Assembly (NCBI RefSeq): GCF_044324785.1
Contig: NZ_CP172127.1
From: Escherichia coli
GTDB taxonomy: Bacteria; Pseudomonadota; Gammaproteobacteria; Enterobacterales; Enterobacteriaceae
Strand: one strand, 5' to 3'
Length of the DNA stretch: 64,000 nucleotides
The notes beneath the pieces are model-generated. The model searched no databases. It worked only from the letters and a program-made list of their open reading frames with translations, and was not told the DNA's origin. Both the position numbers and the translations under genes were made by a program. Positions 5,736-58,367 of this stretch are shown in pieces. Numbering within the stretch: position 1 is the first letter of the stretch; each line of letters begins with the position of its first letter.

Positions 5736-7124
5736 ATGTCTGAACGCTATATTCCACGCTCCGTTGATGCAGAGCAGGCCGTGCTGGGCGGCCTGATGCT
5801 CGATAATGAACGCTGGGATGAGGTGGTACTGATGCTCCGGGGGGAGGATTTTTCTCTGGCCGCACACCGGGTGATATTCCGCACCATGTCAGAGCTGGCA
5901 ACCAGCGGTCAGCCGTTCGACCTCATCACGCTGAGTGAGCATATTGAGAAAACAAACAATATTGAGGCACTGGGTGGTTTCGCTTATCTGGCTGAACTCA
6001 GCAAAAATACGCCTTCTGCAGCCAATATTATCGCTTATGCCCGTATTGTTGCTGAAAAGAGCATGCTGCGTCAGTTGCAGGAGACGGGGAATGCGCTGAT
6101 TACGGATGTGGCCGCACCGGATGCGACACCACGCACTGTTCTTGAATCCGCTGAACGTCGGCTCTTTTCACTTTCACAGACTGGCATGTTGCATGAGCGA
6201 TGTGAAGTCAGTCTCACCTCGGCTATGGAGCTGGCGCTGCGTCAACTGGAAGAGGGACTGAACGCCGGCGGGATGACGGGCACGCCCACGGGATTTGATG
6301 AACTGGATAAGATGACCTGTGGTCTGCAGCCCGGCGACCTCATTCTTCTGGCTGCACGCCCGTCTATGGGGAAAACAGCGCTGGGCCTTACCTTCTGTCT
6401 TAATGCCCTGTGTAACCGGACCGATGAAACGGTATTTCTTTTCAGTATCGAAATGTCCCGGGAGCAGCTGATTCTGCGTGTCCTGTCAATGCTCTCCAGG
6501 GTGGAGCTGACACGTCTTCGCAGCAGCATGATGAATGATGAAGAGTGGGCGAGAGTCACGGCAACCATGGGACGCTTCATGAATGAAGCGTCATTCATCG
6601 GAGATGGAAACCGCCTGATAATTGATGACACCTCCTTCCAGACGCCGTCATCGCTGCGTGCCAGCGCCCGTCGTTATGTCCGTCTGTATGGCAGACCTTC
6701 CCTGATAATGGTTGATTACCTCCAGCTGATTCGTTCTCCGGACCAGGAGAACCGAACGCAGGAAATTGCGGAAATATCCCGCGCCCTTAAGGCGTTAGGT
6801 AAAGAGCTGGGATGCCCGGTACTGGCACTGTCTCAGCTTAACCGTCAGGTGGAGCAGCGGGCGGATAAGCGCCCCAATAACGGTGACCTGCGTGATTCCG
6901 GGGCGCTGGAGCAGGATGCTGACCTCATTATGTTTATTTACCGTGATGAGGTTTATAACTCTGGCACGCTGGATAAGGGCGTTGCTGAAATCATTGTGAG
7001 CAAACAGCGGCAGGGGCCAACCGGAACGATACGGGTGAACTTCGACGGCCGCTACACCCTGTTTTCACCGTTTGAACGTGGATGGAATTTTGACCGTGCC
7101 GGAGGAAATGCGTATGTCAATTAA
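5736..7124 (+). CDS. DnaB-like replicative DNA helicase
   Basis: N-terminal DnaB domain (AEQAVLGGLMLDN), Walker A ARPSMGKTALGLTF, Walker B IMVDYLQL; SD GGGAGGTGG before ATG 5736. Confidence 0.9.
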   Translation: MSERYIPRSVDAEQAVLGGLMLDNERWDEVVLMLRGEDFSLAAHRVIFRTMSELATSGQPFDLITLSEHIEKTNNIEALGGFAYLAELSKNTPSAANIIAYARIVAEKSMLRQLQETGNALITDVAAPDATPRTVLESAERRLFSLSQTGMLHERCEVSLTSAMELALRQLEEGLNAGGMTGTPTGFDELDKMTCGLQPGDLILLAARPSMGKTALGLTFCLNALCNRTDETVFLFSIEMSREQLILRVLSMLSRVELTRLRSSMMNDEEWARVTATMGRFMNEASFIGDGNRLIIDDTSFQTPSSLRASARRYVRLYGRPSLIMVDYLQLIRSPDQENRTQEIAEISRALKALGKELGCPVLALSQLNRQVEQRADKRPNNGDLRDSGALEQDADLIMFIYRDEVYNSGTLDKGVAEIIVSKQRQGPTGTIRVNFDGRYTLFSPFERGWNFDRAGGNAYVN

Positions 7125-8766
7125 ACGAAATCATTCCGTTGATCTGGGAGCTGCCATCATGCAACCGGGCCGTCAGGCCAGCACGACGGGTAACGTGGTG
7201 GCGCTGGGGGAAACACCGATGATTCTGACGCTGGATCAACTGCGCCCCAACCCGGATAACCCGAGGACCACGCGTAATCCCCGGTACGACGATATTAAAA
7301 GTTCAATTTTCTCCCGTGGACTGGATACGGTGCCCAAAGTCACCCGGATACCTGAGAGTGAGCCGGATATCTATATTTTCAGCGATGGTGGTAACACGCG
7401 ATATCAGATCCTGAAAGAGCTGTGGGAGGAGACCGGCGATCAGCGTTTCTATCGTATTCATGTGCTTTTCAAGCCATGGCCGGGACGGCTTCAGTGCGTC
7501 ATTGGTCACCTGGCTGAGAATGAAGTCAGGGGCGAACTGACGTTTATTGAAAAGGCCCGGGGTATCCATAACGCCCGGATGATTTATGAGGAGTCGATGC
7601 AGCGAACCGTGACGATCAGGGAACTGGCGTCACTGCTGACGGATGAAGGACTTCCGGTAAGCCACTCATCTGTCAGCAGGATGGAGCATACTCTGAAATA
7701 TCTGTATCCGTGGATCCCCGATCTTCTGGAATCAGGATTAGGAAGACCGCAGATCAATTCACTGTTGTCTCTCCGGCAGGATGCGGAACGCATCTGGGGA
7801 CAGTTTGCGGTGGCAACAGAGAACGGGGCGGATTTTGACCGCGTGTTTGGTGAATGCTGCAGCAAATTCAATTCACCGGAGCTCTGGTCACTGGAGATGT
7901 TCCGGGATGAGCTGATTGGTGATCTGCTGAAAGCGTTACCACATCCGGTGCTGGATTATGACCGCTGGTTGCTTGAACTGGATCCGCGGGAGCGTAACCG
8001 ACGTCACCATTTTGGCGAACCTGAGCCGGTGCTCATTCCCGCAGACAGTGATGCGATGCCAGAGCCTGCGACTGACGGTGTGTCGGCAGTGACGGCGGAG
8101 AAGAACAGCGGAAGGGAGCAGTCTGTGATTTCCGCACCGGCTGACCATGACACCGTCATGAATACGGAGCAATCCCCGGCTGGAAAGGCGGAGAGTTCAG
8201 TTATCGAACAACGCGAAGAACGCCGTAGAAAGGAAGTCCAGCCGGATATGTATGGTGGTGAAGAAACATACAGCGGCGATTACGAAGAGGATGGCGATAC
8301 CCGTGATGCTGCGGATCTGCCGGTAACGTCACCGGAAGAGGGGGCTCAGCAGAGCAGCGGTGAAATATTCAGTGAGCCGGTATTCAGTGTTGGTGAACTG
8401 GATGATATCGAATATCTGCAGAATGAGGCATTTCACCTGGCATGGGAGCTGGCGTCACACACAGGCTGTGTCGATGAGCTGGCTATGGACAGGGAAAGCG
8501 AACTGTCTGCGGGATTCGGCGCGGCAGAGGCGAATTGTTCTCCGGTCATGGCATTTCTTGTCAGACTGACCGGTGAGGAGGTTCTGCGGGTCAATCCGGT
8601 TTCCCTTGATGCACTGCTGATAGGCGGCAGTACTGAAGAAGACCTGCCGTTGCTTGATGATGAACATGCAGGAAAGTTGCTTCGCCTGCTGGGTGTGTTG
8701 CGTCGTCTGCGGGGGCTGCAGCGTATGGTGGAAGACGAGAGTGAGGAAGGGCGCGATGAATGCTGA
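7114..8766 (+). CDS. ParB-like nuclease-domain protein with acidic C-terminal region
   Basis: N-terminal ParB/Srx-like domain (LTLDQLRPNPDNPR...); SD GGAGGAA before ATG 7114; overlaps dnaB-like stop by 11 nt. Confidence 0.8.
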   Translation: MSIKRNHSVDLGAAIMQPGRQASTTGNVVALGETPMILTLDQLRPNPDNPRTTRNPRYDDIKSSIFSRGLDTVPKVTRIPESEPDIYIFSDGGNTRYQILKELWEETGDQRFYRIHVLFKPWPGRLQCVIGHLAENEVRGELTFIEKARGIHNARMIYEESMQRTVTIRELASLLTDEGLPVSHSSVSRMEHTLKYLYPWIPDLLESGLGRPQINSLLSLRQDAERIWGQFAVATENGADFDRVFGECCSKFNSPELWSLEMFRDELIGDLLKALPHPVLDYDRWLLELDPRERNRRHHFGEPEPVLIPADSDAMPEPATDGVSAVTAEKNSGREQSVISAPADHDTVMNTEQSPAGKAESSVIEQREERRRKEVQPDMYGGEETYSGDYEEDGDTRDAADLPVTSPEEGAQQSSGEIFSEPVFSVGELDDIEYLQNEAFHLAWELASHTGCVDELAMDRESELSAGFGAAEANCSPVMAFLVRLTGEEVLRVNPVSLDALLIGGSTEEDLPLLDDEHAGKLLRLLGVLRRLRGLQRMVEDESEEGRDEC

Positions 8767-9487
8767 TGCCGCACGTCAGGATCAACTGATTAAACGGATA
8801 AGAAAACTGCTGGCGCTGAGCCGGAATAACAGTAACCCCCATGAGGCAGGCCAGGCACTTTCCCGTGCTCAGGCGCTGATGCGCAAGCACGGTATCACTG
8901 AACTGGATACTGATATTTCGGTGATAAAGACCTCGTCATCAAAGGGGGCCCCGTCAGAAGCGGAAAAAGTTCCGGTATGGATGGGGCGCCTTATGCATGT
9001 TGTTGCAGAGGCATTCGGATGCCATACATACCTGGACTGGCGTATCACAACCGGAAGGTACTGGCGGCGGGTTGTCATATTTTATGGCTTTGGGGAGCGC
9101 CCGGTTGTGGCGGCGTATGCCTTTGATGTTCTCTGCCGGCAGATGCAAAAGGCAACAAAGGCGTATCTTTCAACCCAGAGCCGGACATTAAAATTGTCAA
9201 CCCGAAGGGCAAGAGCAGCCATGTTTCGTGACGGCTGGGTTTATGGGGTGCGTGATGTGGTGGATGCATTCCCGCTCACGGAAGATGAGACGCGTGTAAT
9301 GAAGACGTGGCTGAAGAGACAGCAATTTGAGGGAATGGCTGCCTTCCGGAATGTTAAGGACTGTAATGGTGGTGATCGTGCACGCTGGCAGGGATACAAC
9401 GAGGGGAAAAAGGCAACGCTGAATCACGGTGTTGGTTCCCGGGATCTGAGACCGGAAAGCCTGATATCGGGCGGAGGTGAGGTATGA
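8756..9487 (+). CDS. Conserved ICE protein, DUF2786-like N-terminus
   Basis: MNADAARQDQLIKRIRKLLALSRNNSNPHEAGQALSRAQALMRKHGI; SD GAGGAAGG before ATG 8756; family by recall. Confidence 0.65.
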   Translation: MNADAARQDQLIKRIRKLLALSRNNSNPHEAGQALSRAQALMRKHGITELDTDISVIKTSSSKGAPSEAEKVPVWMGRLMHVVAEAFGCHTYLDWRITTGRYWRRVVIFYGFGERPVVAAYAFDVLCRQMQKATKAYLSTQSRTLKLSTRRARAAMFRDGWVYGVRDVVDAFPLTEDETRVMKTWLKRQQFEGMAAFRNVKDCNGGDRARWQGYNEGKKATLNHGVGSRDLRPESLISGGGEV

Positions 9488-10062
9488 GTAACAACTTATC
9501 ACAGGCCACCAACGGGCTGTTGATGCAACTGGTGATGGATCTCAAGAGTGGCTATCTGCGGCGATGTGAAGCGCTGGGGCTTTCCCGGGAAGAAATGCAG
9601 ATGCTGCAGGGGCTGAGCATTGAAGAAATTCACTATCTGTCAAATTCAGAAGTGTCGGTGCTGCGGCTGGATATTAACCACAACAATCTTGTGCGCATGT
9701 TGCAGCAGGCGCGGACTGAACAGAAACGTCTGCAGCGAATCGATCGCGCTCTGGCGCTGGGTGGGTCTATCGAACTCATGGCGTTTTATTTTGGTCTTTC
9801 CAGCGTGGATGTGGCTGCGCGGCGTCGTATCTCCGGTATTGATGTTCGTCCCGGAAGGGGGATCACCCTGAGTGACGATGAGAATTCTGAACTCTGGCGG
9901 TTGTGGCAGAAAGCCGGGATCAATGATGTGGAGAGTGTGGATGGGCTGGATGTCATGATGCTTTGTGCTGAACAGATGAACATTCCACTGACGGCCATCT
10001 GGCATGCCGTCAGAGGGTGGCATACAACCGGAAATCCGGATCAGGTAAGGAGTGCGTCATGA
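9484..10062 (+). CDS. Conserved ICE hypothetical protein (SPI-7-type replication/regulatory region protein)
   Basis: 192-aa ORF translationally coupled to flanking genes; family by recall. Confidence 0.65.
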   Translation: MSNNLSQATNGLLMQLVMDLKSGYLRRCEALGLSREEMQMLQGLSIEEIHYLSNSEVSVLRLDINHNNLVRMLQQARTEQKRLQRIDRALALGGSIELMAFYFGLSSVDVAARRRISGIDVRPGRGITLSDDENSELWRLWQKAGINDVESVDGLDVMMLCAEQMNIPLTAIWHAVRGWHTTGNPDQVRSAS

Positions 10063-10316: not shown

Positions 10317-10574
10317 ATGAGTAATGCAGCAAGACTCCAGCTGGGTTTTTCTCCGTTTTCAAAAACTATCGTGCTGGCAAAAATGCGTAATCTTGACGAC
10401 GGAACCAGTCTTCGTGTCGGTAATGATCCCGGTCGCGATGTAACCAATGAGGCGGCTCAGCTTGTCTGGCATCTGGTCATGGCAGAAGGTGGTGAAATTA
10501 TGTGGGAAATGGACGATGGCTCCCGCATGGTGCTGAAGGCTGAAAGTCAGGAGGCAACCAGTGAGCAAGATTAA
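10317..10574 (+). CDS. Hypothetical protein
   Basis: 85-aa ORF in tightly packed same-strand cluster. Confidence 0.45.
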   Translation: MSNAARLQLGFSPFSKTIVLAKMRNLDDGTSLRVGNDPGRDVTNEAAQLVWHLVMAEGGEIMWEMDDGSRMVLKAESQEATSEQD

Positions 10575-10776
10575 CTACCAGGCACTGCGTGAGGCGGCAG
10601 AGAAAGCACCGTGGGGAGACTGGGACTCATATAAACCGCACCGTGGCGCACGAGGTTATGAGGTCCGACTAAGTAAGACGAGTGAGGTTGACGGGGTGTT
10701 GCGGGGTGATGGGGCACAGTTGTTGCAAAAAGCCCAGCGCGGCGCAAAACCGCTGGAAAAACCACTTGCGCACTAA
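10561..10776 (+). CDS. Hypothetical protein
   Basis: 71-aa ORF overlapping neighbours in operon-like arrangement. Confidence 0.45.
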   Translation: MSKINYQALREAAEKAPWGDWDSYKPHRGARGYEVRLSKTSEVDGVLRGDGAQLLQKAQRGAKPLEKPLAH

Positions 10777-10787
10777 AGGAGATTGAT

Positions 10788-11153
10788 ATGGCACTGACGA
10801 AAAAACAACGTGCAGAACTGCGCATGAAGTTCGGCGGTCGCTGCGCTTATTGCGGCTGCGAGCTTGGCGAAAAGTGGCATGCAGACCATGTAAAACCGGT
10901 CATTCGTTTTGCTGGAAATATGCTTCACCAGGACCGTGACGATATATCCAACATGGTTCCGGCATGCCACCCATGCAATCTGCACAAGCATTGCAGTAGC
11001 CTGGAAGATTATCGGCGAATTATCAGTGATGGTCGTCGTGAATTCCTTGCGTCCGGGAAAGGCAAGGCGCTGGTTCGTATGGGATTGGTTGAAATGAAAT
11101 CTGACCCGGTTGTGTTCTGGTTTGAAAAATATCAAGAAGGGGCTACGGCATGA
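10788..11153 (+). CDS. HNH endonuclease
   Basis: CAYCGCELGEKWHADHVKPV ... VPACHPCNLHKH: Cys-box plus His-Asn-His motif. Confidence 0.8.
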   Translation: MALTKKQRAELRMKFGGRCAYCGCELGEKWHADHVKPVIRFAGNMLHQDRDDISNMVPACHPCNLHKHCSSLEDYRRIISDGRREFLASGKGKALVRMGLVEMKSDPVVFWFEKYQEGATA

Positions 11154-11536
11154 CCACTATTACCAAAGAGCGACTGCTGACAATCAAACAGTGGCGCGAA
11201 ACATACGGACCGGGTAGCAACGTTGTCCTTCCAGCAGAAGAAGCGGAAGAACTGGCACGAATTGCTCTGGCATCGCTGGAAGCAAAACCAATAGGTGCAT
11301 TCCACATTGCAGAACAGCAAGTTGACGGCACAAGTGACTACCTCAAGGATGGAGAATGGCCTATTGATAATGGAATTATTGAGGTCTACGCCGCTCCCCC
11401 CGTTCCAGTAGTACCGGAAGAAAAACCAATGCCTAATCCTCTTAGCATGTACGCGGTCGATGCTGTTGCCGCTATTGCAGAGGTGAGAGGCTGGAACGCC
11501 TGTCGTGCCGCCATGCTTCATGGTAAAGGAGAGTGA
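11150..11536 (+). CDS. Hypothetical protein (paralogous N-terminus with 11744-12250)
   Basis: MTTITKERLL...RIALASLEAKP shared with downstream ORF. Confidence 0.55.
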   Translation: MTTITKERLLTIKQWRETYGPGSNVVLPAEEAEELARIALASLEAKPIGAFHIAEQQVDGTSDYLKDGEWPIDNGIIEVYAAPPVPVVPEEKPMPNPLSMYAVDAVAAIAEVRGWNACRAAMLHGKGE

Positions 11537-11537
11537 T

Positions 11538-11747
11538 ATGGCTATTGCCGCAAGTTACACAATGCATCTCTATTGTGACTGCCGCCAGTGTACGGAAGGT
11601 GTATATCCAGTGCCAGACTTCGGTGAGTATATAGGTACGTCATGGGCTGGCTGTGCAAAAGAGGCGCGCAAGGATGGCTGGCGAATAAGCAAAGACAAAA
11701 CACGTGCTTTTGCGCCAGGGCATAAAGTTTTAAGGATTAACAAATGA
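11538..11747 (+). CDS. Small Cys-rich protein (possible zinc-binding)
   Basis: SD AAGGAG before ATG 11538; HLYCDCRQC...C motif. Confidence 0.5.
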   Translation: MAIAASYTMHLYCDCRQCTEGVYPVPDFGEYIGTSWAGCAKEARKDGWRISKDKTRAFAPGHKVLRINK

Positions 11748-12250
11748 CCACTATTACCAGAGAAAACGCGGAAATTAAATCATTCATCACTGGTTTCCTG
11801 AGCGACGCGGCGCACGATAAACAATCGTCAAACAGCCTGCTTGCCAATGTGTTTCGTATCGCACTGGCATCACTGGAAGCAGAGCCAGTTGCGTGGCGAT
11901 ATCGCTACGTGAAAAAAGGCGTTACGGACTCTCAGGGGGAGTCGTGGGTTGGTGACTGGAAATATGTACCGACAAAAGAGGATTGCAACGACAGACCGAA
12001 CTATGAAATTCAGGCGTTATTCACGGCTCAGCCTGTGCCACTGACACAAGAAGTGTTGAATCTGGAGAAGGCCAGGATGCAGTTGCGTGTTTTGTTATCT
12101 GGACCTGTTCCTGCAATCACTCCGATGGCGCATGCCGTGGCAATAAAAGTTGTGCTTGATGCTCTGGATGCGAGTGAGCGGAGGGTGGCTGAACTGGAAC
12201 AGGTCTGCACTGCCGCGGGTATTCGTATCAAAGGGGAACAAGTGAAATGA
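11744..12250 (+). CDS. Hypothetical protein (paralogous N-terminus with 11150-11536)
   Basis: MTTITRENAE...RIALASLEAEP. Confidence 0.55.
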   Translation: MTTITRENAEIKSFITGFLSDAAHDKQSSNSLLANVFRIALASLEAEPVAWRYRYVKKGVTDSQGESWVGDWKYVPTKEDCNDRPNYEIQALFTAQPVPLTQEVLNLEKARMQLRVLLSGPVPAITPMAHAVAIKVVLDALDASERRVAELEQVCTAAGIRIKGEQVK

Positions 12251-12257
12251 ACTGAAA

Positions 12258-12467
12258 ATGCAGACAATTTCGGGTCCTGTGATTATCGACAGTAATGAGG
12301 TGACACAGTTTTACCCGGACCATGAAAGTGGAGGGGAACTCACCGCTGTTGAGTACCTTGCTGACGGGGGAAGAATCACCGCGAGGGTGAGGCACTCTTT
12401 TTATCAGGTTGCTGCGGCACTTGCCGGGGCATGGCGTGCGGATGATGCATCAAAAAGCGGTGGGTGA
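12258..12467 (+). CDS. Hypothetical protein
   Basis: 69-aa ORF ending the small-gene cluster. Confidence 0.4.
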   Translation: MQTISGPVIIDSNEVTQFYPDHESGGELTAVEYLADGGRITARVRHSFYQVAAALAGAWRADDASKSGG

Positions 12468-12728
12468 GGACTGTGCCGGAATGATTGTCTGTTCCGAAGC
12501 TGCTGAGCCGCGACATAAATTTTTTATGTTGCGGTGAAGCAGCCGACAAACGAAGTGCGTCAGCGTGCTGGTTATTAAGGCAATATTTTTTCAGAGGAAC
12601 CGCAATACCGTCGGTATTAACGGTTTACGGGTAATGAAGTGTTTAGCCTGCATCTTTGCCGGGTGCAGTTATAAGCATTTCGGAAACCGTTCCCCGGCGC
12701 AGTCTGCCGGGATTTAAGGAGTTTATTT

Positions 12729-13994
12729 ATGGCGCTACCTGCAGAAAGCCTTATTGCGCATACGCTCAGAAAAATGAAGGCCAGCATGGCAGAGAAAGCC
12801 AGTCGTGAGGACGGGAGGATACGCAGTGGGCTGTTGTTTACCGGCAATGTTCACGATTCGTATCCCCGCAGGCTGTTGCTGGATACGCGCCTTTCTCCCC
12901 TTGATAAAACTGCGTGGATGATGATTCGTCTGCATGCCCTGAATAATGAGGGCGCAGTATTTCCGACGTACGATGAACTGCAGTTACAACTGGCATCTCC
13001 CGGGCGCGGGAAGGCGTCCCGTGAAACAGTGAGCCGGGTGCTGACAATGCTGCGGCTTACGGGCTGGCTGAGTCTGTGTAAGCGGGTCAGGGATGAAAAA
13101 GGGCGGGTCCGGGGGAATATTTACGCCCTGCATGATGAGCCACTGACCTGCTGTGATGCAGAAAAGTTTGACCCACGATACCTGGATATGGTTCTGGATA
13201 CTGTGAGCAGGAGCCGGAACAAGACAATCCGGCACACAGCCAGTGAAGTGCTCAGTGATATCAAAAATGAGCCCGGTATGCGGCATTACCACAGCCATAT
13301 CACTCTGTTTGAATCGCGTATGGGGGCAGCACAGACACCTGGTCAGCTGGCGGCGCGTCAGCGGGTGAACCCGATGGTGAATGAAAACACAGGCAGAGAG
13401 AGTGGTTCGGATTCCGTACATACCCCTGCACCTGTCGTGCAGGTAACCGAACTCAGTGCTCCGTTAACCGAACTCAGTGAAAAACAGGAAATGAGCCCAC
13501 TCAGTTCGGATTCCGTACTTCCTGAAAAATCAGTAACTTATCACTCGGTTCGGAAACCGAACAATTACGTACGTAATATCACACACAGTGTGATTAAAAA
13601 TACGTACGTATTGCCTGAGTCGGTGAAATCGCAAATCAGCGCAGAAGACACGGACATGCTGACAAAACAACTGCAGGCGTTGCCGGAAGAACTGGCAGGT
13701 AGTGTGCTGAGCAGCCTGTTACAGATGCTCAGCAAAAACACGCTCCAGAATCCGGTTGGCTGGATGCTGGCTGTGATGAAACTTGCGCGTGAGGGACGTT
13801 TTAATACGCCGGATATGTCCGTGCATGAATCCCGGTCGCCAGCCCGTGCACCATATCAGCCTGTGTACAACCGTGATGAACGTGAACGTCGTCGCGGGAA
13901 AGTGGCGTCACCTGAAACGGTGAGCAACATTGTCGCAGAATTCCGGGCCAGCCTGAAACGTGCAAATGCTGCCCGTCTGGCGGCGCGTGTGTGA
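12729..13994 (+). CDS. Putative ICE replication initiator (winged-helix Rep-like; SPI-7 STY4528-type family by recall)
   Basis: SD AAGGAG before ATG 12729; N-terminal HTH/winged-helix-like segment; internal peptide repeats coincide with DNA repeats/palindromes; followed immediately by a 36-bp tandem array. Confidence 0.7.
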   Translation: MALPAESLIAHTLRKMKASMAEKASREDGRIRSGLLFTGNVHDSYPRRLLLDTRLSPLDKTAWMMIRLHALNNEGAVFPTYDELQLQLASPGRGKASRETVSRVLTMLRLTGWLSLCKRVRDEKGRVRGNIYALHDEPLTCCDAEKFDPRYLDMVLDTVSRSRNKTIRHTASEVLSDIKNEPGMRHYHSHITLFESRMGAAQTPGQLAARQRVNPMVNENTGRESGSDSVHTPAPVVQVTELSAPLTELSEKQEMSPLSSDSVLPEKSVTYHSVRKPNNYVRNITHSVIKNTYVLPESVKSQISAEDTDMLTKQLQALPEELAGSVLSSLLQMLSKNTLQNPVGWMLAVMKLAREGRFNTPDMSVHESRSPARAPYQPVYNRDERERRRGKVASPETVSNIVAEFRASLKRANAARLAARV

Positions 13995-14008
13995 TGGTTA
14001 AAAGTCAA

Positions 14009-14836
14009 TCTATGGCGCTACTGGCACCATAGTACAAAAAATGAGCGATGGTGCCACTGACACCACGGTATAAAAAATGAGCGATGGTGACGCTGGCACC
14101 ATAGTACAAAAAATAAGCGATGGTGCCACTGGCACCATAGTACAAAAAATGAGCGATGGTGCCACTGGCACCACGGTATAAAAAATGAGCGATGGTGCCA
14201 CTGGCACCACGGTACAAAAAATAAGCGATGGTGCCACTGGCACCACGGTATAAAAAATGAGCGATGGTGCCACTGGCACCACGGTACAAAAAATAAGCGA
14301 TGGTGCCACTGGCACCACGGTACAAAAAATAAGCGATGGTGCCACTGGCACCACGGTACAAAAAACGAACGATGGTGCCACTGGCACCATAGTACAAAAA
14401 ATAAGCGATGGTGCCACTGGCACCACGGTACAAAAAATAAGCGATGGTGCCACTGGCACCACGGTACAAAAAACGAACGATGGTGCCACTGGCACCATAG
14501 TACAAAAAATAAGCGATGGTGCCACTGGCACCATAGTACAAAAAATAAGCGATGGTGCCACTGGCACCACGGTACAAAAAATAAGCGATGGTGCCACTGG
14601 CACCATAGTACAAAAAATGAGCGATGGTGCCACTGGCACCACGGTATAAAAAATGAGCGATGGTGCCACTGGCACCACGGTACAAAAAATAAGCGATGGT
14701 GCCACTGGCACCATAGTACAAAAAATGAGCGATGGTGCCACTGGCACCACGGTATAAAAAATGAGCGATGGTGACGCTGGCACCATAGTACAAAAAATAA
14801 GCGATGGTGCCACTGGCACCATAGTATAAAAACGAA
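14009..14836. repeat. Tandem array of ~22-23 copies of a 36-bp unit, each containing a 17-19-bp palindrome (A)TGGTGCCACTGGCACCA(T) plus an A-rich spacer
   Basis: Directly visible periodicity of 36 bp across ~830 bp with minor unit variants (cggtac/tagtac, ataa/atga/acgaa, gtgacgctg). Confidence 0.95.
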
Positions 14837-14964
14837 CGCAATTCATACGCTCAATCCCGTTAATTTTAAAAGGTTCAAATCTGTTTTCCTGTTGTTGTTA
14901 ATCCGGTTCTTTCTGACGATCTCACACTCAACTGGTGTTATTTCTGGTACTGAGTGGAGGTCAT

Positions 14965-15645
14965 ATGACTGATGAGAAAAAGACTGAACCTGGCGTGTTA
15001 AAAAGCTCCCTGACAATTAATATTCACACTTATTACGCTATTCGGTTGTGGAACGGTCGCAAGCCTGAGACTGGTGCTGATAAGTCGGAACGTCGGCGCA
15101 GGATCATTGGCATGCCCGGGGTTATTTCCCGTGCGGGTATCGCAACAAAAGATTCTGAGAACAATAATCCGTGGGCGGATGAATTTTTGTTCAGCCTTGA
15201 GGAAAAGCTGAATCACTCAAAGCAAAAGATTAATGACCTGGTTGAGCAGTTAAATGATGTTTTACGGGATGTGCCAGGGGATATTTGTATTTCTGAAATA
15301 TCATCAACCAGTCCAGTAAATATTGGTGTGCACAGTCGTTCACCTCTTGGTTACAAATGTGTATGGCTGCTTGTCGGGTACGATGAACTGGTGCTTAAAG
15401 CCTTTCAGGCTTTCCACTATGGACTGATTGCCCGATCACGTCGTGATGAAATACTTAATGCCGGAGGGCATGCTGTACGTCAGATTTGTGCTCTTGCCCA
15501 GGGATATAAAACTGTACCTGCAACGAGGGGTGATATTTCTTCTGGCTCACAAAAAGGAAAAGATGCGATCAGCCGCTATGGCATGCCTGATCCTGACATC
15601 CTTACCGGGAAGAAACGGTCCTCCTTTTCTGCACCGCTGAAATAA
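14965..15645 (+). CDS. Conserved ICE protein (PFL_4669-type family by recall)
   Basis: SD GGAGG before ATG 14965; conserved position before topB in this ICE family. Confidence 0.65.
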   Translation: MTDEKKTEPGVLKSSLTINIHTYYAIRLWNGRKPETGADKSERRRRIIGMPGVISRAGIATKDSENNNPWADEFLFSLEEKLNHSKQKINDLVEQLNDVLRDVPGDICISEISSTSPVNIGVHSRSPLGYKCVWLLVGYDELVLKAFQAFHYGLIARSRRDEILNAGGHAVRQICALAQGYKTVPATRGDISSGSQKGKDAISRYGMPDPDILTGKKRSSFSAPLK

Positions 15646-15657
15646 TCTGGTAACTCT

Positions 15658-17676
15658 ATGCGTCTCTATTTATGTGAAAAACCTTCACAGGCCGCTGATA
15701 TAGCCAGAGTACTTGGGGCTGCCAGACGTGGTGATGGTGCGATTGAAGGTAAGGACTTTGTTGTGACCTGGGCCTTTGGTCACTTGCTGGAGCAGGCGCC
15801 ACCGGAGGCGTATGGTGAACAGTTTGGCAGCCCCTGGAAAATTGACGTTTTGCCGGTCTTTCCTAAACAGTGGAAGATGGTGGTGAAGGATAATGTCGGG
15901 AAGCAGTTTAATGTGATCAGCCGCCTTCTCCGTAAGACTGATGAAGTGGTGATTGCCACTGACGCCGATCGTGAAGGCGAAATTATCGCAAGGGAACTGC
16001 TGGATTATTGTGGTTATACCGGCGTTGTGCGCCGTCTCTGGCTGTCCGCACTGGATGAGAGCAGTATCAGGGAGGCGCTGGGCAGAATACTGCCCGGAGA
16101 GGAGACCGAGAAGTTATATGAAGCCGGTAAGGGACGCAGCCGGGCTGACTGGCTGACGGGGATCAACCTGACGCGTCTGTATACCCTGAAAGCCAGGGGG
16201 TGTGGTGTGTCCGGCGTCCTCTCTGTTGGCAGGGTGCAGACGCCCACGCTTGCGATGGTGGTCAGACGGGACGCGGAAATAAAAAATTTTATTCCGGTAC
16301 CTTACTGGCAACTGTATCTCTGGCTGGAGAAGGATAATGTGCGTTTTCGTACCACCTGGATTGCGGCAGCGCAGTACTGCGATACTGAAAAACGGTGTGT
16401 GAATGTGCAGGCGGCAACAGCCGTCCTGTCACAGTGTCGTCAGGCAGGTGTTGCTGTTGTCAGGGATGTCAGCAGCAGACGGGAGAAAAAGCAGCCTCCG
16501 CTGTGTTTTTCGCTCGGAACGTTGCAGGAGGTCTGTTCGCGCAAATTTGGCCTCGGAGCGCAGGCTGTTCTTGATATAGCCCAGTCGCTGTACGAAAAGC
16601 ATAAGGCGACAACATATCCGCGTACAGATTGCGGTTATCTGCCGGTATCAATGCACAAAGAAGTGCCTGACGTACTGGCGGCGCTGGAAAAAACCGATCC
16701 GGATATTGCCACGGAGCTGGCAAAACTCAGTCCTGATATTGTGTCGGGGATCTGGAACGACAGGAAGATCACCGCGCATCATGCGATAATCCCCACCCGT
16801 CAGCCGTTTAATATTGTGGCGCTGAGTGATAATGAGCTTAAGGTGTACCGGTTAATTCGTCAGCATTATCTGGCTCAGTTTTTACCCATGCAGGAGTCGG
16901 ATGTCACAGAGGCCACATTTCTTGTTGCGGGGCAGTTGTTCGGAACGCGGGGACGGGTGGAGGTTGTCAGGGGATGGCGTGCGCTTTTTGTGTCAGATTC
17001 GGCGGGAGAGGAAGAGGATGTTGCAGACGATGAGCAGGCGATGCCCCTTCCCGTACTGGCAAAAGGTGATGAATGTCGTCCTGCTGAAGCTGAACTCAAA
17101 GAGATGCAGACCACGCCACCACGTCATTATACGGAAGGCACGCTGATTGCGGCGATGAAAAATGCTGCGGGTATGGTGAGTGATCCGGCACTGAAAAAAG
17201 TGTTACGCGAAAATGCGGGGCTGGGTACTGAAGCGACCCGCGCAGAAATACTGGAAACGTTGTTCACCCGCAAATATATCGAGAAGCAGGGTAAGCATAT
17301 CCGTGCCACGCAACTGGGGGCGGAGCTGATAGCGGGATTGCCGGAGGCGCTGACCAGTCCGGGAACAACGGCGCTGTGGGAACAGGCTCTGGATGATATT
17401 GCACAGGGTAAACTGTCACTGTCGTCATTTATGGAGAAGCAGAAACAGTGGCTTAACCACCTGGTGGCCGGTGCAAGGCAGCAGCCACTGCAGATCACGG
17501 CACCGGTTACGCCTGCATGCCCTCTTTGCAGGGGAAGAATGCGGAAAGTGAAGATGAAAAGCGGGAAAGGGGAATTCTGGAGTTGTCAGCGTTATCCGGA
17601 GTGTAAGGGAGTGATTTCAGAGCAGAAACCGACATCCGGGAAACGGGGCGGCAGAAAAATTAAAAAGCGTGGATGA
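15658..17676 (+). CDS. topB: DNA topoisomerase III
   Basis: TOPRIM (IATDADREGE), topo IA core (SVGRVQTPTLAMVV), C-terminal zinc ribbon (CPLCRGRM...CQRYPECKG). Confidence 0.9.
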   Translation: MRLYLCEKPSQAADIARVLGAARRGDGAIEGKDFVVTWAFGHLLEQAPPEAYGEQFGSPWKIDVLPVFPKQWKMVVKDNVGKQFNVISRLLRKTDEVVIATDADREGEIIARELLDYCGYTGVVRRLWLSALDESSIREALGRILPGEETEKLYEAGKGRSRADWLTGINLTRLYTLKARGCGVSGVLSVGRVQTPTLAMVVRRDAEIKNFIPVPYWQLYLWLEKDNVRFRTTWIAAAQYCDTEKRCVNVQAATAVLSQCRQAGVAVVRDVSSRREKKQPPLCFSLGTLQEVCSRKFGLGAQAVLDIAQSLYEKHKATTYPRTDCGYLPVSMHKEVPDVLAALEKTDPDIATELAKLSPDIVSGIWNDRKITAHHAIIPTRQPFNIVALSDNELKVYRLIRQHYLAQFLPMQESDVTEATFLVAGQLFGTRGRVEVVRGWRALFVSDSAGEEEDVADDEQAMPLPVLAKGDECRPAEAELKEMQTTPPRHYTEGTLIAAMKNAAGMVSDPALKKVLRENAGLGTEATRAEILETLFTRKYIEKQGKHIRATQLGAELIAGLPEALTSPGTTALWEQALDDIAQGKLSLSSFMEKQKQWLNHLVAGARQQPLQITAPVTPACPLCRGRMRKVKMKSGKGEFWSCQRYPECKGVISEQKPTSGKRGGRKIKKRG

Positions 17677-43691: not shown

Positions 43692-43915
43692 TGAGCACGC
43701 CACGGGCAAGCCCTTATGGCTAAAGGAGAGGGAGATTGCCCGTGGCGGCCCACTTTTTTTAATCATTTTTTTACCATGTTGTCCAGTATTTTTACATAAG
43801 TGAAACATCTGGTGTTGTTTTCTGTTCATCGTGCTGGAAGTTACAGGGCTTGTAATTGAACGGGGAGAGATGTAATTTACGTGCGCAAAAATTTTACTCA
43901 AGGGGGAGAAAACCG

Positions 43916-44179
43916 ATGAAACCGAATATCCATCCTGAATACCGTACTGTGGTGTTCCACGATACCAGTATCGATGAGTACTATAAAATTGGTTCGACCA
44001 TCAAGACTGAACGTGTGATTGAGCTTGATGGTGTCACCTATCCGTACGTAACAATTGATGTTTCCTCTAAGTCGCATCCTTTCTACACTGGCAAACTGAG
44101 AACTGTTGCTTCAGAAGGTAACGTGGCGCGCTTTAACCAGCGTTTCGGTCGTTTTGTTGACACCAAAAAAGGCGCATGA
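43916..44179 (+). CDS. ykgM: 50S ribosomal protein L31 type B (zinc-independent paralog)
   Basis: [31 protein letters not shown]... matches RpmE2/YkgM by recall, lacks the CxxC zinc ribbon; SD GGGGAGAAAA. Confidence 0.8.
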
Positions 44180-53365: not shown

Positions 53366-53412
53366 AATAAATCAGTGATGGCAGAGTTGTTATTGTAAAT
53401 AACTCTCCGTGT

Positions 53413-56328
53413 TTACTGAGTCAGTTTTTTTATCAGGTCGTGAATTTTATCACCTGAAAACTGGGTCATGAAAGTTATCTTTATGGATTTACTGATTTGT
53501 TCGAAGAGTTTCTGTGCATGTTTTATTTTATCGCGTTCTTCATGTCTGAGTTCACGTTTGCCATCAACATTTTTGGTTTCAATAATAAGGTTCAGATAAT
53601 CACCCTTTGACGTGTTTACAACATAAGCGAAGTCAGGGGAGTAAGTGTATCCTCCCGCTACAGGAATTTTTATTGAATTTTTGGGGATCTTTGTGAAGAC
53701 AATGACTGACCTGACCTCACCCTCTGTCATATTGAGTTTTTCAAGTTCTGAATCATAAAATACTTCTTCAAAAAGATAAGAGTCCAGTGGAGGGCTTGTA
53801 TTATCCTGTAAAACGCCAAGATCACTTGACAATACATCAGCAAGATAACCGCCGTCTGCATTGGTGAATTTCGTGGGATGGACAGTTCCTGATATTACAT
53901 TATACCCAAGGCTGAATTTACTGAACGAGTTATTAAGCAAATACTTGCTGAAACCAGATTTAATTTTTCTGATTGTCTGAATGTTAAGGTATTCAGTTAT
54001 ATTTATGATGTCTTTTATATCACAAAAAACCTTATGCATGGTGTCATGTTTGACAAAAATAGTCTGTGATAATTTATCAAGGAATTCACGATAGCTCATT
54101 GTGTTTATTTTGTGAAAATTATCCTCATCAACACTGAGAATGCTTTTCGACATTGCCGTATCATTATGGATATAAATTCTTTCAATACGAGTATGAGCAC
54201 CGGATTTGGTAAATCTGTCTGCTTCTTCCAGCATAAACGCTCTGAAAAGGGATAAAAACTCACGTTCACTTTTTATTTTATACTCAATCACGACCTTTTG
54301 ATTGATCAAGTCCCATAGTTCTTTCAGCTCACTGAACTTACCAACACGCATTTTAGTGCGTCTTTTTCCATCAGAGGCTTTTTTTATTTTGCCTGGTTTC
54401 ACTCCTGCAGGAAATGCTGCCGGATATCTGGCTTTTAAGCGGCTATAGGCATCTGAATCTTTGAAGTTATCATTATCATCAATGATCTCATCACCAAAAA
54501 TTTCATTCAAGAGTGTTCTGGAGGAAAGCTCCGGATATTGAGACAGGATTTTATCCTTAAGCTCCTGAGTAAACTTACCTGGAACAGTCTCTTTGAAAGA
54601 ACTATCGTTGATCTCTTTGACAAGAGAATCGACAAAATCTTTTTCTGTAAAATCAACATAATAGTTGAGGGTAAAATTGCGGTCTTTCACACGACACATG
54701 TATTCATTCACCGGAAGACGTAAACCACGCCCTACTTCCTGAAGTTTAGATGTGGTGCTACCGCTCGAACGGAGCTTACAAATCTGAAAGACATTTGGGT
54801 TATCCCATCCCTCACGCAACGTCCATTTAGAGAAAATGAAACGGCGAGGATTTTCTAAAGACAATAGAAGCTCTTTATCATGAAGGATTTCGTTGATTTC
54901 CTGCTCAATTTTATCATCTTTATCACTATTATCTTTTGAAAAATAACCACCATGAACAGAAGATATATCCTTAACAGTTTTTTCAAGGTAGTTTCTGTAA
55001 AACTCATCTTTTTCTGTTTTTAACAGTTCATTTGCTTCTGCCAAAACGTATTCTTCGAACTTAGTTTTCAGGCTTCCTGCAATATCATTACCATCACGAT
55101 AGCCTTCAATGTCATCAATGAAGAAAAGAGTAAGAGGTTTTATGCGTGGCCTTTGTGTCAGATACTCTTTTTCTAACTTAAAGTGTTCTTTGACAGCTTT
55201 ACGTATCATGTTATCAGCAAGTGTCTGATCGTAAGAATAGGGGTTTATCGAACTACCAATTTTTAGCTCAATACCATTACTCAACACTGCTGTATTCTTA
55301 TTTAAAGCATCAAGAGTTAAATCATGGATCGCACTATGCGTCTTAGATAGTGATTCACCTTTGGCTAACTTAAAAATTTTTTTATTATTATTTTCGTTCA
55401 GTTCAAATGTAGCTTCTTTTCCGTCAGATTTGACCAACTTGAGGTTGGCATTACCATCACCAACTATATCCTCAATGTATGCATCAATACCTTTAACAAG
55501 ATCTTCATTGAAGGCATCTACGGCTGTAAGACGATAAACTAAGTTCTTATAGCCTTCACTAAAGGTTGCACCATAGCGGATGATATATTGGGCATTAAAT
55601 TTTTGAATATGTTCCCATGTCTTTTTACCAGTAGGAAATTTATGAGGCTCATCAATGATAATGAATGGTTTTATCGCACTAAGTGCAGAAAATGGGGTAT
55701 CAAACTGATTATTAAGCAAGCCAACATCATAAGTGTCAGTTAAAGACTTAGAGTTAATCATCCCTGAATTGATCACAAGAATGTGTATATATTTCTTATT
55801 GAAATTACTTGCTTCAACAAAATCATGGATAGCTTGAGGTATATACGATTTTGTATTTTTACCCGAACGTTTCTGACTTTCAACAACGTAAGTCTTTAGT
55901 TCACGCTCGTAATCATCTCGAAAGTGTTCTTTTATAGCATCGCTTTTTAAAAAGTTAACGGTTCCGGCTTTGATCGATAGGGTAGGAACAATGATGATAA
56001 ACTTGTTAATACCAAATGATTTGTTCAGGTCAAAAATTGTTTTGGTGTAAGTATAAGTTTTACCTGTACCTGTCTCCATAGAAACATCAATTACGTTGCT
56101 TTTAGCATCGTAATTATCTTTTGAGTGCTCAATACCATTGAACTCCTGAACATTTTTTATGTTGTTGTAGTATTGTTGTTCAGATAGATTCAGTTCTGGA
56201 TTAGCTAACAGGCGAATTGCAACATGATCCGTCTGATGAGGTATGGCGGATACAAAGACATTCATTACCGAATCAACGCCAGCCTTTTGATGAGGTAAAT
56301 TTTTTTCGAATGTGAACCCTTTAGACAT
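53413..56328 (-). CDS. res: Type III restriction enzyme Res subunit
   Basis: 971 aa; helicase Walker A METGTGKTYT, DEAH-like IIIDEPH, motif VI QEVGRGLRL, C-terminal PD-(D/E)xK; low GC; immediately downstream of mod. Confidence 0.85.
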   Translation of the reverse strand: MSKGFTFEKNLPHQKAGVDSVMNVFVSAIPHQTDHVAIRLLANPELNLSEQQYYNNIKNVQEFNGIEHSKDNYDAKSNVIDVSMETGTGKTYTYTKTIFDLNKSFGINKFIIIVPTLSIKAGTVNFLKSDAIKEHFRDDYERELKTYVVESQKRSGKNTKSYIPQAIHDFVEASNFNKKYIHILVINSGMINSKSLTDTYDVGLLNNQFDTPFSALSAIKPFIIIDEPHKFPTGKKTWEHIQKFNAQYIIRYGATFSEGYKNLVYRLTAVDAFNEDLVKGIDAYIEDIVGDGNANLKLVKSDGKEATFELNENNNKKIFKLAKGESLSKTHSAIHDLTLDALNKNTAVLSNGIELKIGSSINPYSYDQTLADNMIRKAVKEHFKLEKEYLTQRPRIKPLTLFFIDDIEGYRDGNDIAGSLKTKFEEYVLAEANELLKTEKDEFYRNYLEKTVKDISSVHGGYFSKDNSDKDDKIEQEINEILHDKELLLSLENPRRFIFSKWTLREGWDNPNVFQICKLRSSGSTTSKLQEVGRGLRLPVNEYMCRVKDRNFTLNYYVDFTEKDFVDSLVKEINDSSFKETVPGKFTQELKDKILSQYPELSSRTLLNEIFGDEIIDDNDNFKDSDAYSRLKARYPAAFPAGVKPGKIKKASDGKRRTKMRVGKFSELKELWDLINQKVVIEYKIKSEREFLSLFRAFMLEEADRFTKSGAHTRIERIYIHNDTAMSKSILSVDEDNFHKINTMSYREFLDKLSQTIFVKHDTMHKVFCDIKDIINITEYLNIQTIRKIKSGFSKYLLNNSFSKFSLGYNVISGTVHPTKFTNADGGYLADVLSSDLGVLQDNTSPPLDSYLFEEVFYDSELEKLNMTEGEVRSVIVFTKIPKNSIKIPVAGGYTYSPDFAYVVNTSKGDYLNLIIETKNVDGKRELRHEERDKIKHAQKLFEQISKSIKITFMTQFSGDKIHDLIKKLTQ

Positions 56329-56330
56329 GA

Positions 56331-58367
56331 TTAGTTCCTTACCACCAAATCTAAATCAATAGATTTTTTATTAGCATAACTTTTTAGTGCTTCATTGAGT
56401 TCCATCTGTTTCGCACTTTCGAAGTTGCTGCCATAAAATACAACTTTGTTAGGGGCAAAGTCTTTGTCTGCATCCAGCTTTTGAAGTAAAGCTTTCAAAG
56501 CCTCACTTGTGAAATTAGGCGCAATTAGATATAGCCGACCATCGCACAAGTGTGCTTTGTAGCCATTAAGGTCAATATCTTCAATTGGTGTTGTTAGCAA
56601 GCTGCCATCATACACGCACCATGTCGTCAATAGAGTGTCATACTGCTCTGGTGTCAATACAGCATCGTCAAAGAAACTAAGATTAGAAAGCGTAAGTTCA
56701 GACTCATCTTTCACTCGAAAATCATGAACTGTTTCAAATATTTTAAATCCCAAATCTCCATTATAATTAGGATTATCTTTTTTCAGCTTTTTTCCTGCCT
56801 TAATAATTCTGTCTTTTGTTATATTGAAGATGGATTTATACCCTTCTTTATAGGCTTGTTTCTTTTTATCTGTTTCTTCATCTAATTGAACACAGATGAA
56901 GTTTCTTTTCCTGCCGTCTTCAATATTTAACTCCAGAATACCATGAGCTGTAGTTCCAGAGCCAGCAAAAAAGTCAAGATAAATGTCTTTATCTTCGGTT
57001 TTTACTGAACCAAATAGTGTTTTTATTAAACTTGTTGGCTTCGGGTAGGAGAAATATCCTTTCCCACCAAAAAGATTTTCAACCTCAACACCACCATCAC
57101 TTTTAGTTGAAATAATTGATCTTAGTAAAAACTCTTCAACTTCATCTAAAAATTTAACCGAACTGGGTTGGGTGTTTTCTGTACTGGCAAACCAAATTCC
57201 ACCACAAATAACGCTACCATCATGTAGTTTTTTGATATCTGCATACTTTCCATCTATTCTTTTTGCAATATGATTAAAAGTGCCTTCTTTCCAACGCCAG
57301 CCTCTGTCTGGGATTTTGACAGGGTTATTAGTCAAAGGGTGCAATACTTCATACGTGGGTCCAAATGAATCTGCATTAGGCCAGCTCATATTAATTTTAC
57401 CCCATGGCCTATAATCTTCGTTCAAACAGTTGTAAAGAGTAATTCCACGATCATATCCGTTGGAGCTGTAGAATTTTTTGAGTTGCTGCTCTGCTTTATC
57501 TAATGGCACCTTCTCCTTTTTTAACTTTTCAATAAACTGATATACATCATCAATACCATCTTTCCGCATTAAAAATTCTTTACTTATTTCGTTATTCTTC
57601 GCATAAGCAAGGATGTACTCATGGATATTACCAATACCCTTATCATTTTTAGGGATACGTTTATTCCATACAATATTTTCTATGAAATTTGCTTCGCCAA
57701 AAATTTCATCACAAATAGTTTTAAGTTGATTTAATTCATTTTCGTCAATCGAAATAAATATCACACCATCTTCACGTAGAAGCTCACGAGCAATATATAA
57801 ACGAGGATAAATGAACGTTAACCATGCGCTATGGCTGCTTGAACCATTCGTGGTAAATTCAAGTATACGTTTAGCCTCATCAAGATCGATACCTGCCAGA
57901 TCAGAAAGCTGTTCAGGTGTAAACTTGCGATCATCGTTATAGGCGAATCCATCCTTACCTGTATTGTATGGTGGATCAATGTAAATCATCTTCACCTTTT
58001 CAGAGTAAGCATTAACCATATGCTTCAATACTTCGAGGTTATCCCCTTTGATTAACAGATTCTGACTGTTTTTGTTCTCTTCACGTTGGTTATGGTCTTT
58101 ATCTTCGGAGAGTAATGTCTTCGGCGGCAAGTTAGCTAACAGACGGGCATAGGATTTACCAAGCCAGTTCAGGCTGTATGATTCTTTGGAGAGTTCAACA
58201 TCCGATGATTTGACGATTTCAAGCAATTTTTCCTGAATGAACGCTCCATTTTTATCAAAACACTGTGGAAAGTTAGCCTTTAAAATCGCAAGCTGTTTAC
58301 TGTTTGTGGTTTCAGTTTCAGAGAAAAGAGTTTCTTTTTTCAGTTGAAATTGGGGTTGTGTATTCAT
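56331..58367 (-). CDS. mod: Type III N6-adenine DNA methyltransferase Mod subunit
   Basis: Motif IV DPPY (MIYIDPPYNTG) preceding motif I FFAGSGTT (beta-class order); SD GGAGGTG 5 nt before ATG 58367; mod-res order. Confidence 0.85.
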   Translation of the reverse strand: MNTQPQFQLKKETLFSETETTNSKQLAILKANFPQCFDKNGAFIQEKLLEIVKSSDVELSKESYSLNWLGKSYARLLANLPPKTLLSEDKDHNQREENKNSQNLLIKGDNLEVLKHMVNAYSEKVKMIYIDPPYNTGKDGFAYNDDRKFTPEQLSDLAGIDLDEAKRILEFTTNGSSSHSAWLTFIYPRLYIARELLREDGVIFISIDENELNQLKTICDEIFGEANFIENIVWNKRIPKNDKGIGNIHEYILAYAKNNEISKEFLMRKDGIDDVYQFIEKLKKEKVPLDKAEQQLKKFYSSNGYDRGITLYNCLNEDYRPWGKINMSWPNADSFGPTYEVLHPLTNNPVKIPDRGWRWKEGTFNHIAKRIDGKYADIKKLHDGSVICGGIWFASTENTQPSSVKFLDEVEEFLLRSIISTKSDGGVEVENLFGGKGYFSYPKPTSLIKTLFGSVKTEDKDIYLDFFAGSGTTAHGILELNIEDGRKRNFICVQLDEETDKKKQAYKEGYKSIFNITKDRIIKAGKKLKKDNPNYNGDLGFKIFETVHDFRVKDESELTLSNLSFFDDAVLTPEQYDTLLTTWCVYDGSLLTTPIEDIDLNGYKAHLCDGRLYLIAPNFTSEALKALLQKLDADKDFAPNKVVFYGSNFESAKQMELNEALKSYANKKSIDLDLVVRN

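Follow-up and report, generated by a model that had tools for sequence, protein, structure and literature searches.

The window analysed here is a 64-kb chromosomal segment of Escherichia coli of the avian-pathogenic type, 100% identical to NZ_CP126926.1, and carries an integrative conjugative element (ICE) of the SPI-7/pKLC102 type. Inside the STY4528-family "replication protein" gene of this ICE lies a cluster of palindromes, at 13400–13611, which on sequence evidence is probably the initiator-binding core of the ICE vegetative origin (oriV), set into the stretch of the initiator gene that codes for a linker. The segment is under selection at the DNA level and its architecture is conserved among homologues. 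It encodes a predicted disordered linker in a protein whose modelled fold is initiator-like. The ICE genes run in the order integrase, parA, dnaB-PI, parB, DUF2786, DUF2857, small variable genes and the STY4528-family gene, followed by a repeat array, a PFL_4669-family gene, topoisomerase III, STY4534, ssb, and the type-IV transfer genes.

A conserved palindromic site within the STY4528-family gene

The gene and the elements of its embedded site are as follows, in window coordinates.

12729–13994, + strand: STY4528-family ICE "replication protein" gene, 421 aa
13405–13419, no strand: box 1, GTTCGGATTCCGTAC, a 6-3-6 palindrome with one mismatch in the right arm, from a repeat/palindrome search
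13444–13458, no strand: half box TAACCGAACTCAGTG, the right arm of an extended palindrome whose left arm is degenerate in the window ICE
13465–13479, no strand: second half box TAACCGAACTCAGTG, right arm
13498–13518, no strand: box with the extended left arm CACTCAGTTCGGATTCCGTAC
13528–13540, + strand: IHF-consensus-like site AATCAGTAACTTA (pattern WATCARNNNNTTR) between the last two boxes, a sequence match only
13548–13562, no strand: last box GTTCGGAAACCGAAC, a perfect palindrome in the other codon frame (V-R-K-P-N)
13565–13611, no strand: AT-rich ~47-bp imperfect palindrome made up of TTACGTACGTAA, TCACAC-ACA-GTGTGA, an A-tract and ATACGTACGTAT, a candidate unwinding or hairpin element
13589–13597, − strand: DnaA-box-like 9-mer TTAATCACA, a sequence match with one mismatch to TTWTNCACA; most homologues have the perfect TTATTCACA

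The repeats and palindromes that an initial annotation had reported from the sequence of this Rep-like open reading frame (ORF) are all present, at the positions it gave except for a one-base offset in one 14-mer. GTTCGGATTCCGTAC is found at 13405–13419 and again at 13504–13518, and AACCGAACTCAGTG at 13445–13458 and 13466–13479 (from 13444 and 13465 when the preceding T is included), so that both copies stand and only the start reported for the first was off by one. The sequence GTTCGGAAACCGAAC, of the form GTTCGG-N3-CCGAAC, occupies 13548–13562, and the palindromes TTACGTACGTAA (13565–13576) and ATACGTACGTAT (13600–13611) enclose TCACAC-ACA-GTGTGA (13579–13593). The seemingly different repeats 5′ of 13563 represent a single motif in full or half copies, since both copies of TAACCGAACTCAGTG are right halves of the extended palindrome CACTGAGTTCGG-N3-CCGAACTCAGTG. 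Copies of this palindrome are centred near 13412, 13445, 13466, 13511, and 13555, giving three full and two half boxes between 13405 and 13562; homologues carry full boxes where the window has the half box at 13444–13458. On the 3′ side, the two ACGTACGT palindromes and TCACAC/GTGTGA combine into the ~47-bp imperfect palindrome at 13565–13611. The GC minimum of the gene (35%) falls at 13560–13619, most 60-nt windows of the gene having 45–65%, and the stretch 13540–13620 folds strongly as single-stranded DNA (z = −6.3).

The density of symmetric DNA exceeds chance. When motifs were counted in the 64-kb window and in 100 shuffles, GTTCGGNNNCCGWAC with at most one mismatch gave eight strand-matches at four places, three of them in the cluster, compared with 0.5 expected (eight or more in 0/100 shuffles). 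Three matches to CCGAACTCAGTG were found vs. 0.25 expected (0/100 shuffles), and WTACGTACGTAW gave two exact matches and one near match vs. 0.27 expected. The cluster motifs are essentially absent from the remainder of the 64 kb.

The initial annotation had proposed that this cluster marks a cis-acting DNA site overlapping a protein linker, a claim that poor DNA conservation under a conserved protein sequence would contradict. Synonymous-site comparison gave the opposite result, with constraint across 13400–13611. Eighty loci from Enterobacterales were fetched, one genome per species (43–59% protein identity to the window), and 46 non-redundant genes were aligned by codon. Mean synonymous identity per codon was 0.74 in codons 221–300 (nt 13389–13628) vs. 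0.42 elsewhere (Mann–Whitney p = 4.6e-21), and it was likewise 0.42 in the protein-conserved columns outside this segment. Blocks of 10 codons scored 0.61–0.86 across nt 13389–13628 and 0.38–0.50 in most of the gene (0.29–0.50 overall), the constraint running from ~13404 to 13610, nearly the extent first reported. A DNA alignment of five genes shows 13538–13611 to be nearly invariant, including third codon positions, and shows the protein-invariant N-terminal domain to vary at nearly every third position. The ~47-bp palindrome is almost invariant in 45 homologues, again with third codon positions included. In a megablast search of 5,426 complete E. coli genomes, diverged ICEs (the 60–80% band) aligned solely at query positions 740/775–1083, which correspond to the repeat region and the sequence after it.

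In an AlphaFold2 model of the STY4528 protein built from a 50-sequence alignment, residues 220–291 (nt 13386–13601) have pLDDT below 50 and thus form a predicted disordered linker. Together with the synonymous constraint, this predicted disorder supports a cis-acting DNA site embedded in a linker-coding segment, as do a palindrome kept in two codon frames and its persistence across the family at 25–31% protein identity.

Boxes matching GTTCGG-N3-CCGAAC with at most one mismatch occur in 2–6 copies in nearly all of 85 loci, always 590–920 nt into the gene, and none was found in the gene flanks examined at these loci (up to 3 kb per side). The order of elements is conserved: boxes, IHF-consensus site, last palindrome, and the AT-rich ~47-bp element ACGTACGT...TCACAC/GTGTGA...A-tract...ACGTACGT. 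Among 150 boxes, 114 are read in one codon frame (S-S-E/D-x-E-L-S) and 34 in another (V-R-K-P-N), the latter being the last box of each gene, and the DNA consensus is common to both frames. Half-site bases are 80–99% conserved regardless of codon position; the 3-base spacer is variable, with 93% A/T. The commonest spacings between boxes are 45 bp (n = 33), 44 bp (n = 31), 54 bp (n = 16), and 33 bp (n = 10), and box phase coherence shows a broad peak at a period of 10.8–11 bp. The last two boxes stand 44 bp apart in E. coli, in pKLC102 (Pseudomonas) and in a Ralstonia element alike, even though 44 is not divisible by 3.

Consensus sites for host factors accompany the boxes. The sequence AAATCA(A/G)NNNNTTA lies 3′ of the penultimate box and fits the IHF consensus WATCARNNNNTTR in 35 of 45 homologues, compared with 0 of 180 control segments taken from these genes. 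After the last box follows (G/C)NTTACGTACGTA-NTTTCACACA-N-AGTGTGAATAAAAAAACGTACGTA, and the TGTGAATAA in this element reads on the opposite strand as TTATTCACA, which matches the DnaA-box consensus perfectly; that consensus was found in 33 of 45 homologues vs. 2 of 180 control segments. This layout can still be recognised at 25–31% protein identity in pKLC102, with four GAGTTCGG-N3-CCGAACTC boxes spaced 44/54/44 and then an AT-rich, GTAC-containing palindrome; in ICEHin1056, with four GTTCC-N5-GGAAC boxes; in a Stutzerimonas plasmid; and in the Ralstonia element, with CTTCGG-N3-CCGAAG boxes.

The STY4528 protein as candidate binder

The Rep-like label first given to the host ORF fits its family assignment. 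ORF 12729–13994 matches NCBIfam NF040582, "STY4528 family pathogenicity island replication protein", with 387.1 bits (E = 1e-115) over model positions 1–322 of 323, above the curated cut-off of 130 bits for this whole-protein hidden Markov model, and the RefSeq annotation agrees. In the AlphaFold2 model, the linker is preceded by a confidently predicted N-terminal domain (aa ~34–213), which contains a winged helix, and is followed by a confident helical C-terminal domain (aa 297–354 and 395–420). The modelled N-terminal winged helix resembles those of RepA_N and DnaD initiators, and the predicted structure of this domain has the RepA_N/DnaD-NTD fold, which supports an initiator-like reading of the protein. 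A sequence-profile search of the PDB with the STY4528 protein returned no relevant match, and tblastn against phage records, examined for a relation to phage replication proteins, gave just three unannotated or island-like matches.

Comparison of 50 genes tentatively links a putative recognition helix of this domain to the half-sites of the boxes. The helix A-S-R-E-T-V/I-S-R-V-L is invariant in Enterobacterales genes with the GTTCGG half-site, and all 42 genes with S-R-E-T/S have xTTCGx half-sites. In lineages with altered half-sites, substitutions fall at residues 98–100 of the helix: four Erwinia genes (L053, L073, L074, and L080) pair S-R-D-T with GTCCGG or GTCCGA, ICEHin1056 from Haemophilus (L087) pairs S-R-K-L with GTTCC, the Ralstonia gene (L089) pairs S-H-E-T with CTTCGG, and a further gene (L078) pairs S-R-G-T with GTTCGA. 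Where the boxes of a gene have changed, the two arms have changed symmetrically and all copies have changed in concert, a pattern suggestive of sequence-specific binding by a dimer that the element itself encodes.

A probable embedded origin and alternative functions

After excision of the element, STY4528 dimers would bind the GTTCGG-N3-CCGAAC boxes through the N-terminal winged helix, forming an array on boxes spaced at near-integral helical turns. IHF bound between the last two boxes would bend the DNA and aid wrapping, DnaA may also act in most family members, and the adjoining AT-rich palindrome would melt or be extruded. The C-terminal domain of STY4528 would then recruit the ICE-encoded DnaB-type helicase, SSB, and topoisomerase III, all encoded alongside, and the downstream 36-bp array would serve as a second, lineage-specific protein-binding array, probably for ParB in partition, or in copy control. 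We infer that STY4528 is the binder and that replication would start within 13400–13611; the preference for an origin over a nick site or a centromere draws on the architecture of the site and on analogy with known systems.

The element falls within an already proposed ICE "oriV". Mavrodi 2009 (PMC2647930) placed a putative ~1.1-kb oriV of PFGI-1, in P. fluorescens Pf-5, upstream of PFL_4669, with four copies of CTGAGTTCGGAATCCGAACTCAGT in its first half and four 46-bp repeats in its second; the proposal was made in silico only, and the authors remarked that the island encodes no Rep protein. This is the one paper in the searched literature in which the box sequence was found. Juhas 2007 (PMC2258188) and a 2020 review describe "putative" or "postulated" oriVs defined by iteron-like repeats. 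In pKLC102, for which up to ~30 circular copies per chromosome are reported, the in-gene element is likewise present, with four boxes. The window shares with the putative oriVs of PFGI-1, pKLC102, ICEHin1056, and SPI-7 the palindrome itself (the four CTGAGTTCGGAATCCGAACTCAGT of PFGI-1), the neighbours dnaB, parB, topoisomerase, and ssb, and a bipartite plan in which palindromes come first and an array of direct repeats bearing inverted repeats follows, on the upstream side of the PFL_4669 gene: in the window, several copies of (CTGA)GTTCGG-N3-CCGAAC(TCAGT) are followed by an adjacent inverted-repeat-bearing array upstream of its PFL_4669-family gene. It differs in its three full and two half boxes and in an array of 36-bp rather than 46- or 57-bp units. 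To the proposed "oriV" the present analysis adds the location of the palindromes inside an initiator-like coding sequence, the synonymous constraint, the IHF and DnaA consensus sites, and a modelled DnaD/RepA_N-like fold.

A similar arrangement is known from RepA_N replicons, theta replicons of Firmicutes. In pSK41, four Rep boxes lie centrally in rep and encode a dispensable linker between the winged-helix DNA-binding domain and the primase-binding C-terminal domain, and the iterons of RepA_N replicons form inverted repeats that converge on an A-tract. The STY4528 gene has its boxes in a central part as well, which encodes the predicted disordered linker between the modelled N-terminal winged helix and the C-terminal domain. 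In contrast to RepA_N replicons, it belongs to an integrating element of a proteobacterial host, and three features come in addition: the ACGTACGT palindrome, the long array downstream, and a DnaB helicase encoded by the element. Since a RepA_N (PF06970) match was found in 0 of 50 STY4528 family members, the system is described as one that would work like RepA_N, not as a member of that family.

The classic proteobacterial parallel is phage lambda, whose ori lies inside the O gene, in the segment coding for the inter-domain linker. There, four dyad-symmetric iterons are followed by an AT-rich region and a palindrome, and the C-terminal part of O recruits the helicase loader. The resemblance lies in a candidate origin set in the linker-coding part of a putative initiator gene and in the combination of iterons with an AT-rich palindrome. 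STY4528 differs in having no sequence or Pfam relation to Phage_rep_O, in the sequence and spacing of its boxes, and in belonging to an ICE that encodes its own helicase.

Several observations weigh against an embedded origin. Experimental origin mapping was found for no family member in the searched literature, where all origins are "putative", and the demonstrated replication of the excised element in the related ICEclc needs the relaxase and oriT1, not an oriV. At the sequence level, no Pfam initiator family was found above threshold for the STY4528 protein, the sub-threshold matches being DnaD_N, HTH_36, and RP-C_C, with a Crp-type helix-turn-helix at aa 96–117 of the window protein; a Foldseek search of the PDB with the model gave nothing significant. 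The covariation of helix and half-site is suggestive only, because it comes from just about four independent events. The window copy is itself partly degenerate, with two mismatched-arm boxes, two half boxes, and one mismatch in the DnaA-like box. Finally, plasmid records with the ICE module can hold another replicon, as pPant4 does, and for this reason they do not show that the module is sufficient.

STY4528 homologues occur in 35 plasmid records. pPant4 of Pantoea vagans (NZ_CP022520.1, loci L093 and L094) is a 72-kb circle with a whole ICE-type replication, partition, and transfer module that includes STY4528 and a TraI-domain protein; it also has a separate "replication initiation protein" and a TrfB-like gene. 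Plasmid records were rejected as proof of autonomous replication, given this conventional initiation gene in pPant4.

Among alternatives to an embedded origin, the box array could be a parS centromere to which ICE ParB dimers bind and through which ParA segregates the circle, the origin then being the 36-bp array. We consider this unlikely. The sites are palindromic, clustered, and downstream of parB (a gene lying ~2.7 kb upstream), and the literature regards the array farther downstream as the portion of the origin that contains the iterons. In the F plasmid, sopC consists of 43-bp repeats, each with a palindrome, placed in tandem near parB, and P1 parS contains an IHF site; the 44-bp box spacing of the window resembles the sopC period. 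However, the recognition helix of ParB varies widely among elements with an identical in-gene box: across loci L007–L092, PV- is followed by SHSS, NHSS, HNST, SASH, HYSS, HHSN, SQTS..., and then -ISRME, and the box stays GTTCGG-N3-CCGAAC without the covariation expected of parS. A variable ParB better fits the lineage-variable palindromes downstream, such as the array palindrome that accompanies PVSHS in the window and pKLC102, which makes the 36-bp array the better analogue of sopC. A centromere also leaves the adjoining conserved AT-rich palindrome and the DnaA-box consensus unexplained.

A role in single-stranded or nicked DNA, as an oriT with a relaxase nick site or as an ssi hairpin that primes strand displacement, would have the ~47-bp palindrome extruded and then cut or primed. 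The strong single-stranded fold of 13540–13620 is in keeping with this, the ACGTACGT pair being able to make one long hairpin, and strand displacement has been suggested in the literature for pKLC102. Two oriTs, reportedly conserved among related islands, are known from ICEclc, and the replication of ICEclc is relaxase-dependent. We nevertheless assign this role only a small probability: the site lies in a dnaB-parB-topB-ssb module, no relaxase gene is found among the annotations of the 64-kb window, and four phased sequence-specific palindromes with host-factor consensus sites are typical of duplex binding by an initiator. Mispairs in the box arms also show no strand-specific wobble tolerance: 30 would be tolerated as wobble pairs on the minus strand and 12 on the plus strand, and 22 fit neither strand.

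It is improbable that the boxes are a regulatory operator array within the gene, bound by STY4528, the AcaB-like PFL_4669 protein, or DUF2857 and controlling read-through or downstream expression with no replication role. Palindromes suit dimeric helix-turn-helix proteins, and AcaB-like and FlhD-like regulators are encoded nearby, but an operator leaves unexplained the AT-rich palindrome, the consensus sites for IHF and DnaA, and the 44-bp spacing kept throughout the family, and a scan of 12400–15100 found no sigma-70-like promoter. Dispersed operators were considered and rejected, the box and array palindromes being essentially absent elsewhere in the 64-kb window. As for the regulators themselves, the PFL_4669-family protein (window ~14929–15606; 16201–16881 in locus L001) is a clear match to the Pfam AcaB regulator (E = 2e-74), and DUF2857 (window ~9484–10062; L001 10756–11334) has a weak FlhD match, which hints at an AcaB/AcaCD-like activation circuit in SPI-7-type ICEs.

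Conservation for RNA or protein reasons, whether mRNA hairpins, a repeated S-S-E-x-E-L-S linker peptide, or a hidden overlapping ORF, is very improbable: the region as RNA does fold better than shuffles (z = −4.7) and the boxes do translate to a repeated SSExELS peptide, but the last box is translated in a different frame, giving VRKPN, synonymous sites are fixed and amino-acid-changing spacer bases vary, one stem sequence recurs in all hairpins across the family without being required by structure alone, no strand-specific G-U pattern is seen, and the peptide (aa 220–291) is predicted to be disordered. An Rfam E-value scan found no family match, with sub-threshold noise only, located in the array. 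An overlapping ORF was ruled out, all five alternative frames having stops in the 215-nt region in 44–45 of 45 genes.

The downstream array, other ICE genes and implications

Directly after the STY4528 stop codon, and followed by the PFL_4669-family gene, lies the second repeat of the region.

14012–14832, no strand: tandem array of 22.8 copies of a 36-bp unit, each the palindrome TGGTGCCAcTGGCACCA plus an A-tract

Homologues carry equivalent arrays, and TGGTGCCAcTGGCACCA also occurs in the 57-bp × 15 array of pKLC102. The 36-bp array corresponds to the repeats that have been postulated as oriV for pKLC102 and PFGI-1, and it makes up the second half of the putative origin/partition region. A scan gave 25 "terminator-like" hits, all of them the palindrome and T-run of this array, and a minus-strand "hypothetical protein" coding sequence that RefSeq places across the array is probably spurious.

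The ICE parB gene lies at window ~7114–8766 (L001 8386–10038). Array palindromes are lineage-specific and vary as ParB does: the window and pKLC102 have both the palindrome TGGTGCCAcTGGCACCA and the ParB motif PVSHS at 43% ParB identity, and a closer E. coli relative has PVNHS and the palindrome GGTGGCAcTGCCACC. A strict code between ParB helix and array palindrome is only partly consistent with the data, as L081 and L092 both have NHSS with different palindromes, and the correspondence is kept as a lead only because L081 breaks a clean code. Taken at the sequence level, these patterns suggest that the 36-bp array is a sopC-like ParB centromere rather than an iteron origin.

Other parts of the ICE vary or carry cargo. 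The stretch between DUF2857 and STY4528 (window ~10560–12470; L001 11833–13739) holds genes for a ParE-like toxin and an HNH endonuclease, ead/Ea22-like pseudogene fragments, and small hypothetical genes, and its content differs among related ICEs (L002–L005). Cargo at window ~43880–44145 (record 4649270–4649533) and ~53380–58330 comprises a type-B ribosomal protein L31 paralogue, a type III restriction-modification system, an ArdA anti-restriction protein, and toxin-antitoxin remnants.

For the large SPI-7/PAPI-1/pKLC102/ICEHin1056 superfamily of proteobacterial ICEs as a whole, we put forward, more tentatively, an origin of the RepA_N or lambda-O style within the initiator gene: STY4528 would be an unrecognised initiator of DnaD/RepA_N fold that binds its own linker-coding boxes and loads the island's DnaB, and the adjoining variable array would be a ParB centromere. 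If this is true, the single "oriV" of the literature splits into an origin and a centromere. The family carries SPI-7 with the Vi antigen, the virulence genes of PAPI-1, antibiotic resistance in Haemophilus, and catabolic islands; several members persist as multicopy circles, and the sole demonstrated replication, that of ICEclc, is relaxase-driven. The analysis supplies a precise family-wide candidate, a 210-bp in-gene site with a candidate initiator of modelled DnaD/RepA_N-like fold, which makes the replication and persistence of these ICEs in dividing cells, and the origin of the family, directly testable. Synonymous recoding or annotation-driven engineering of the gene would probably destroy the cis site.

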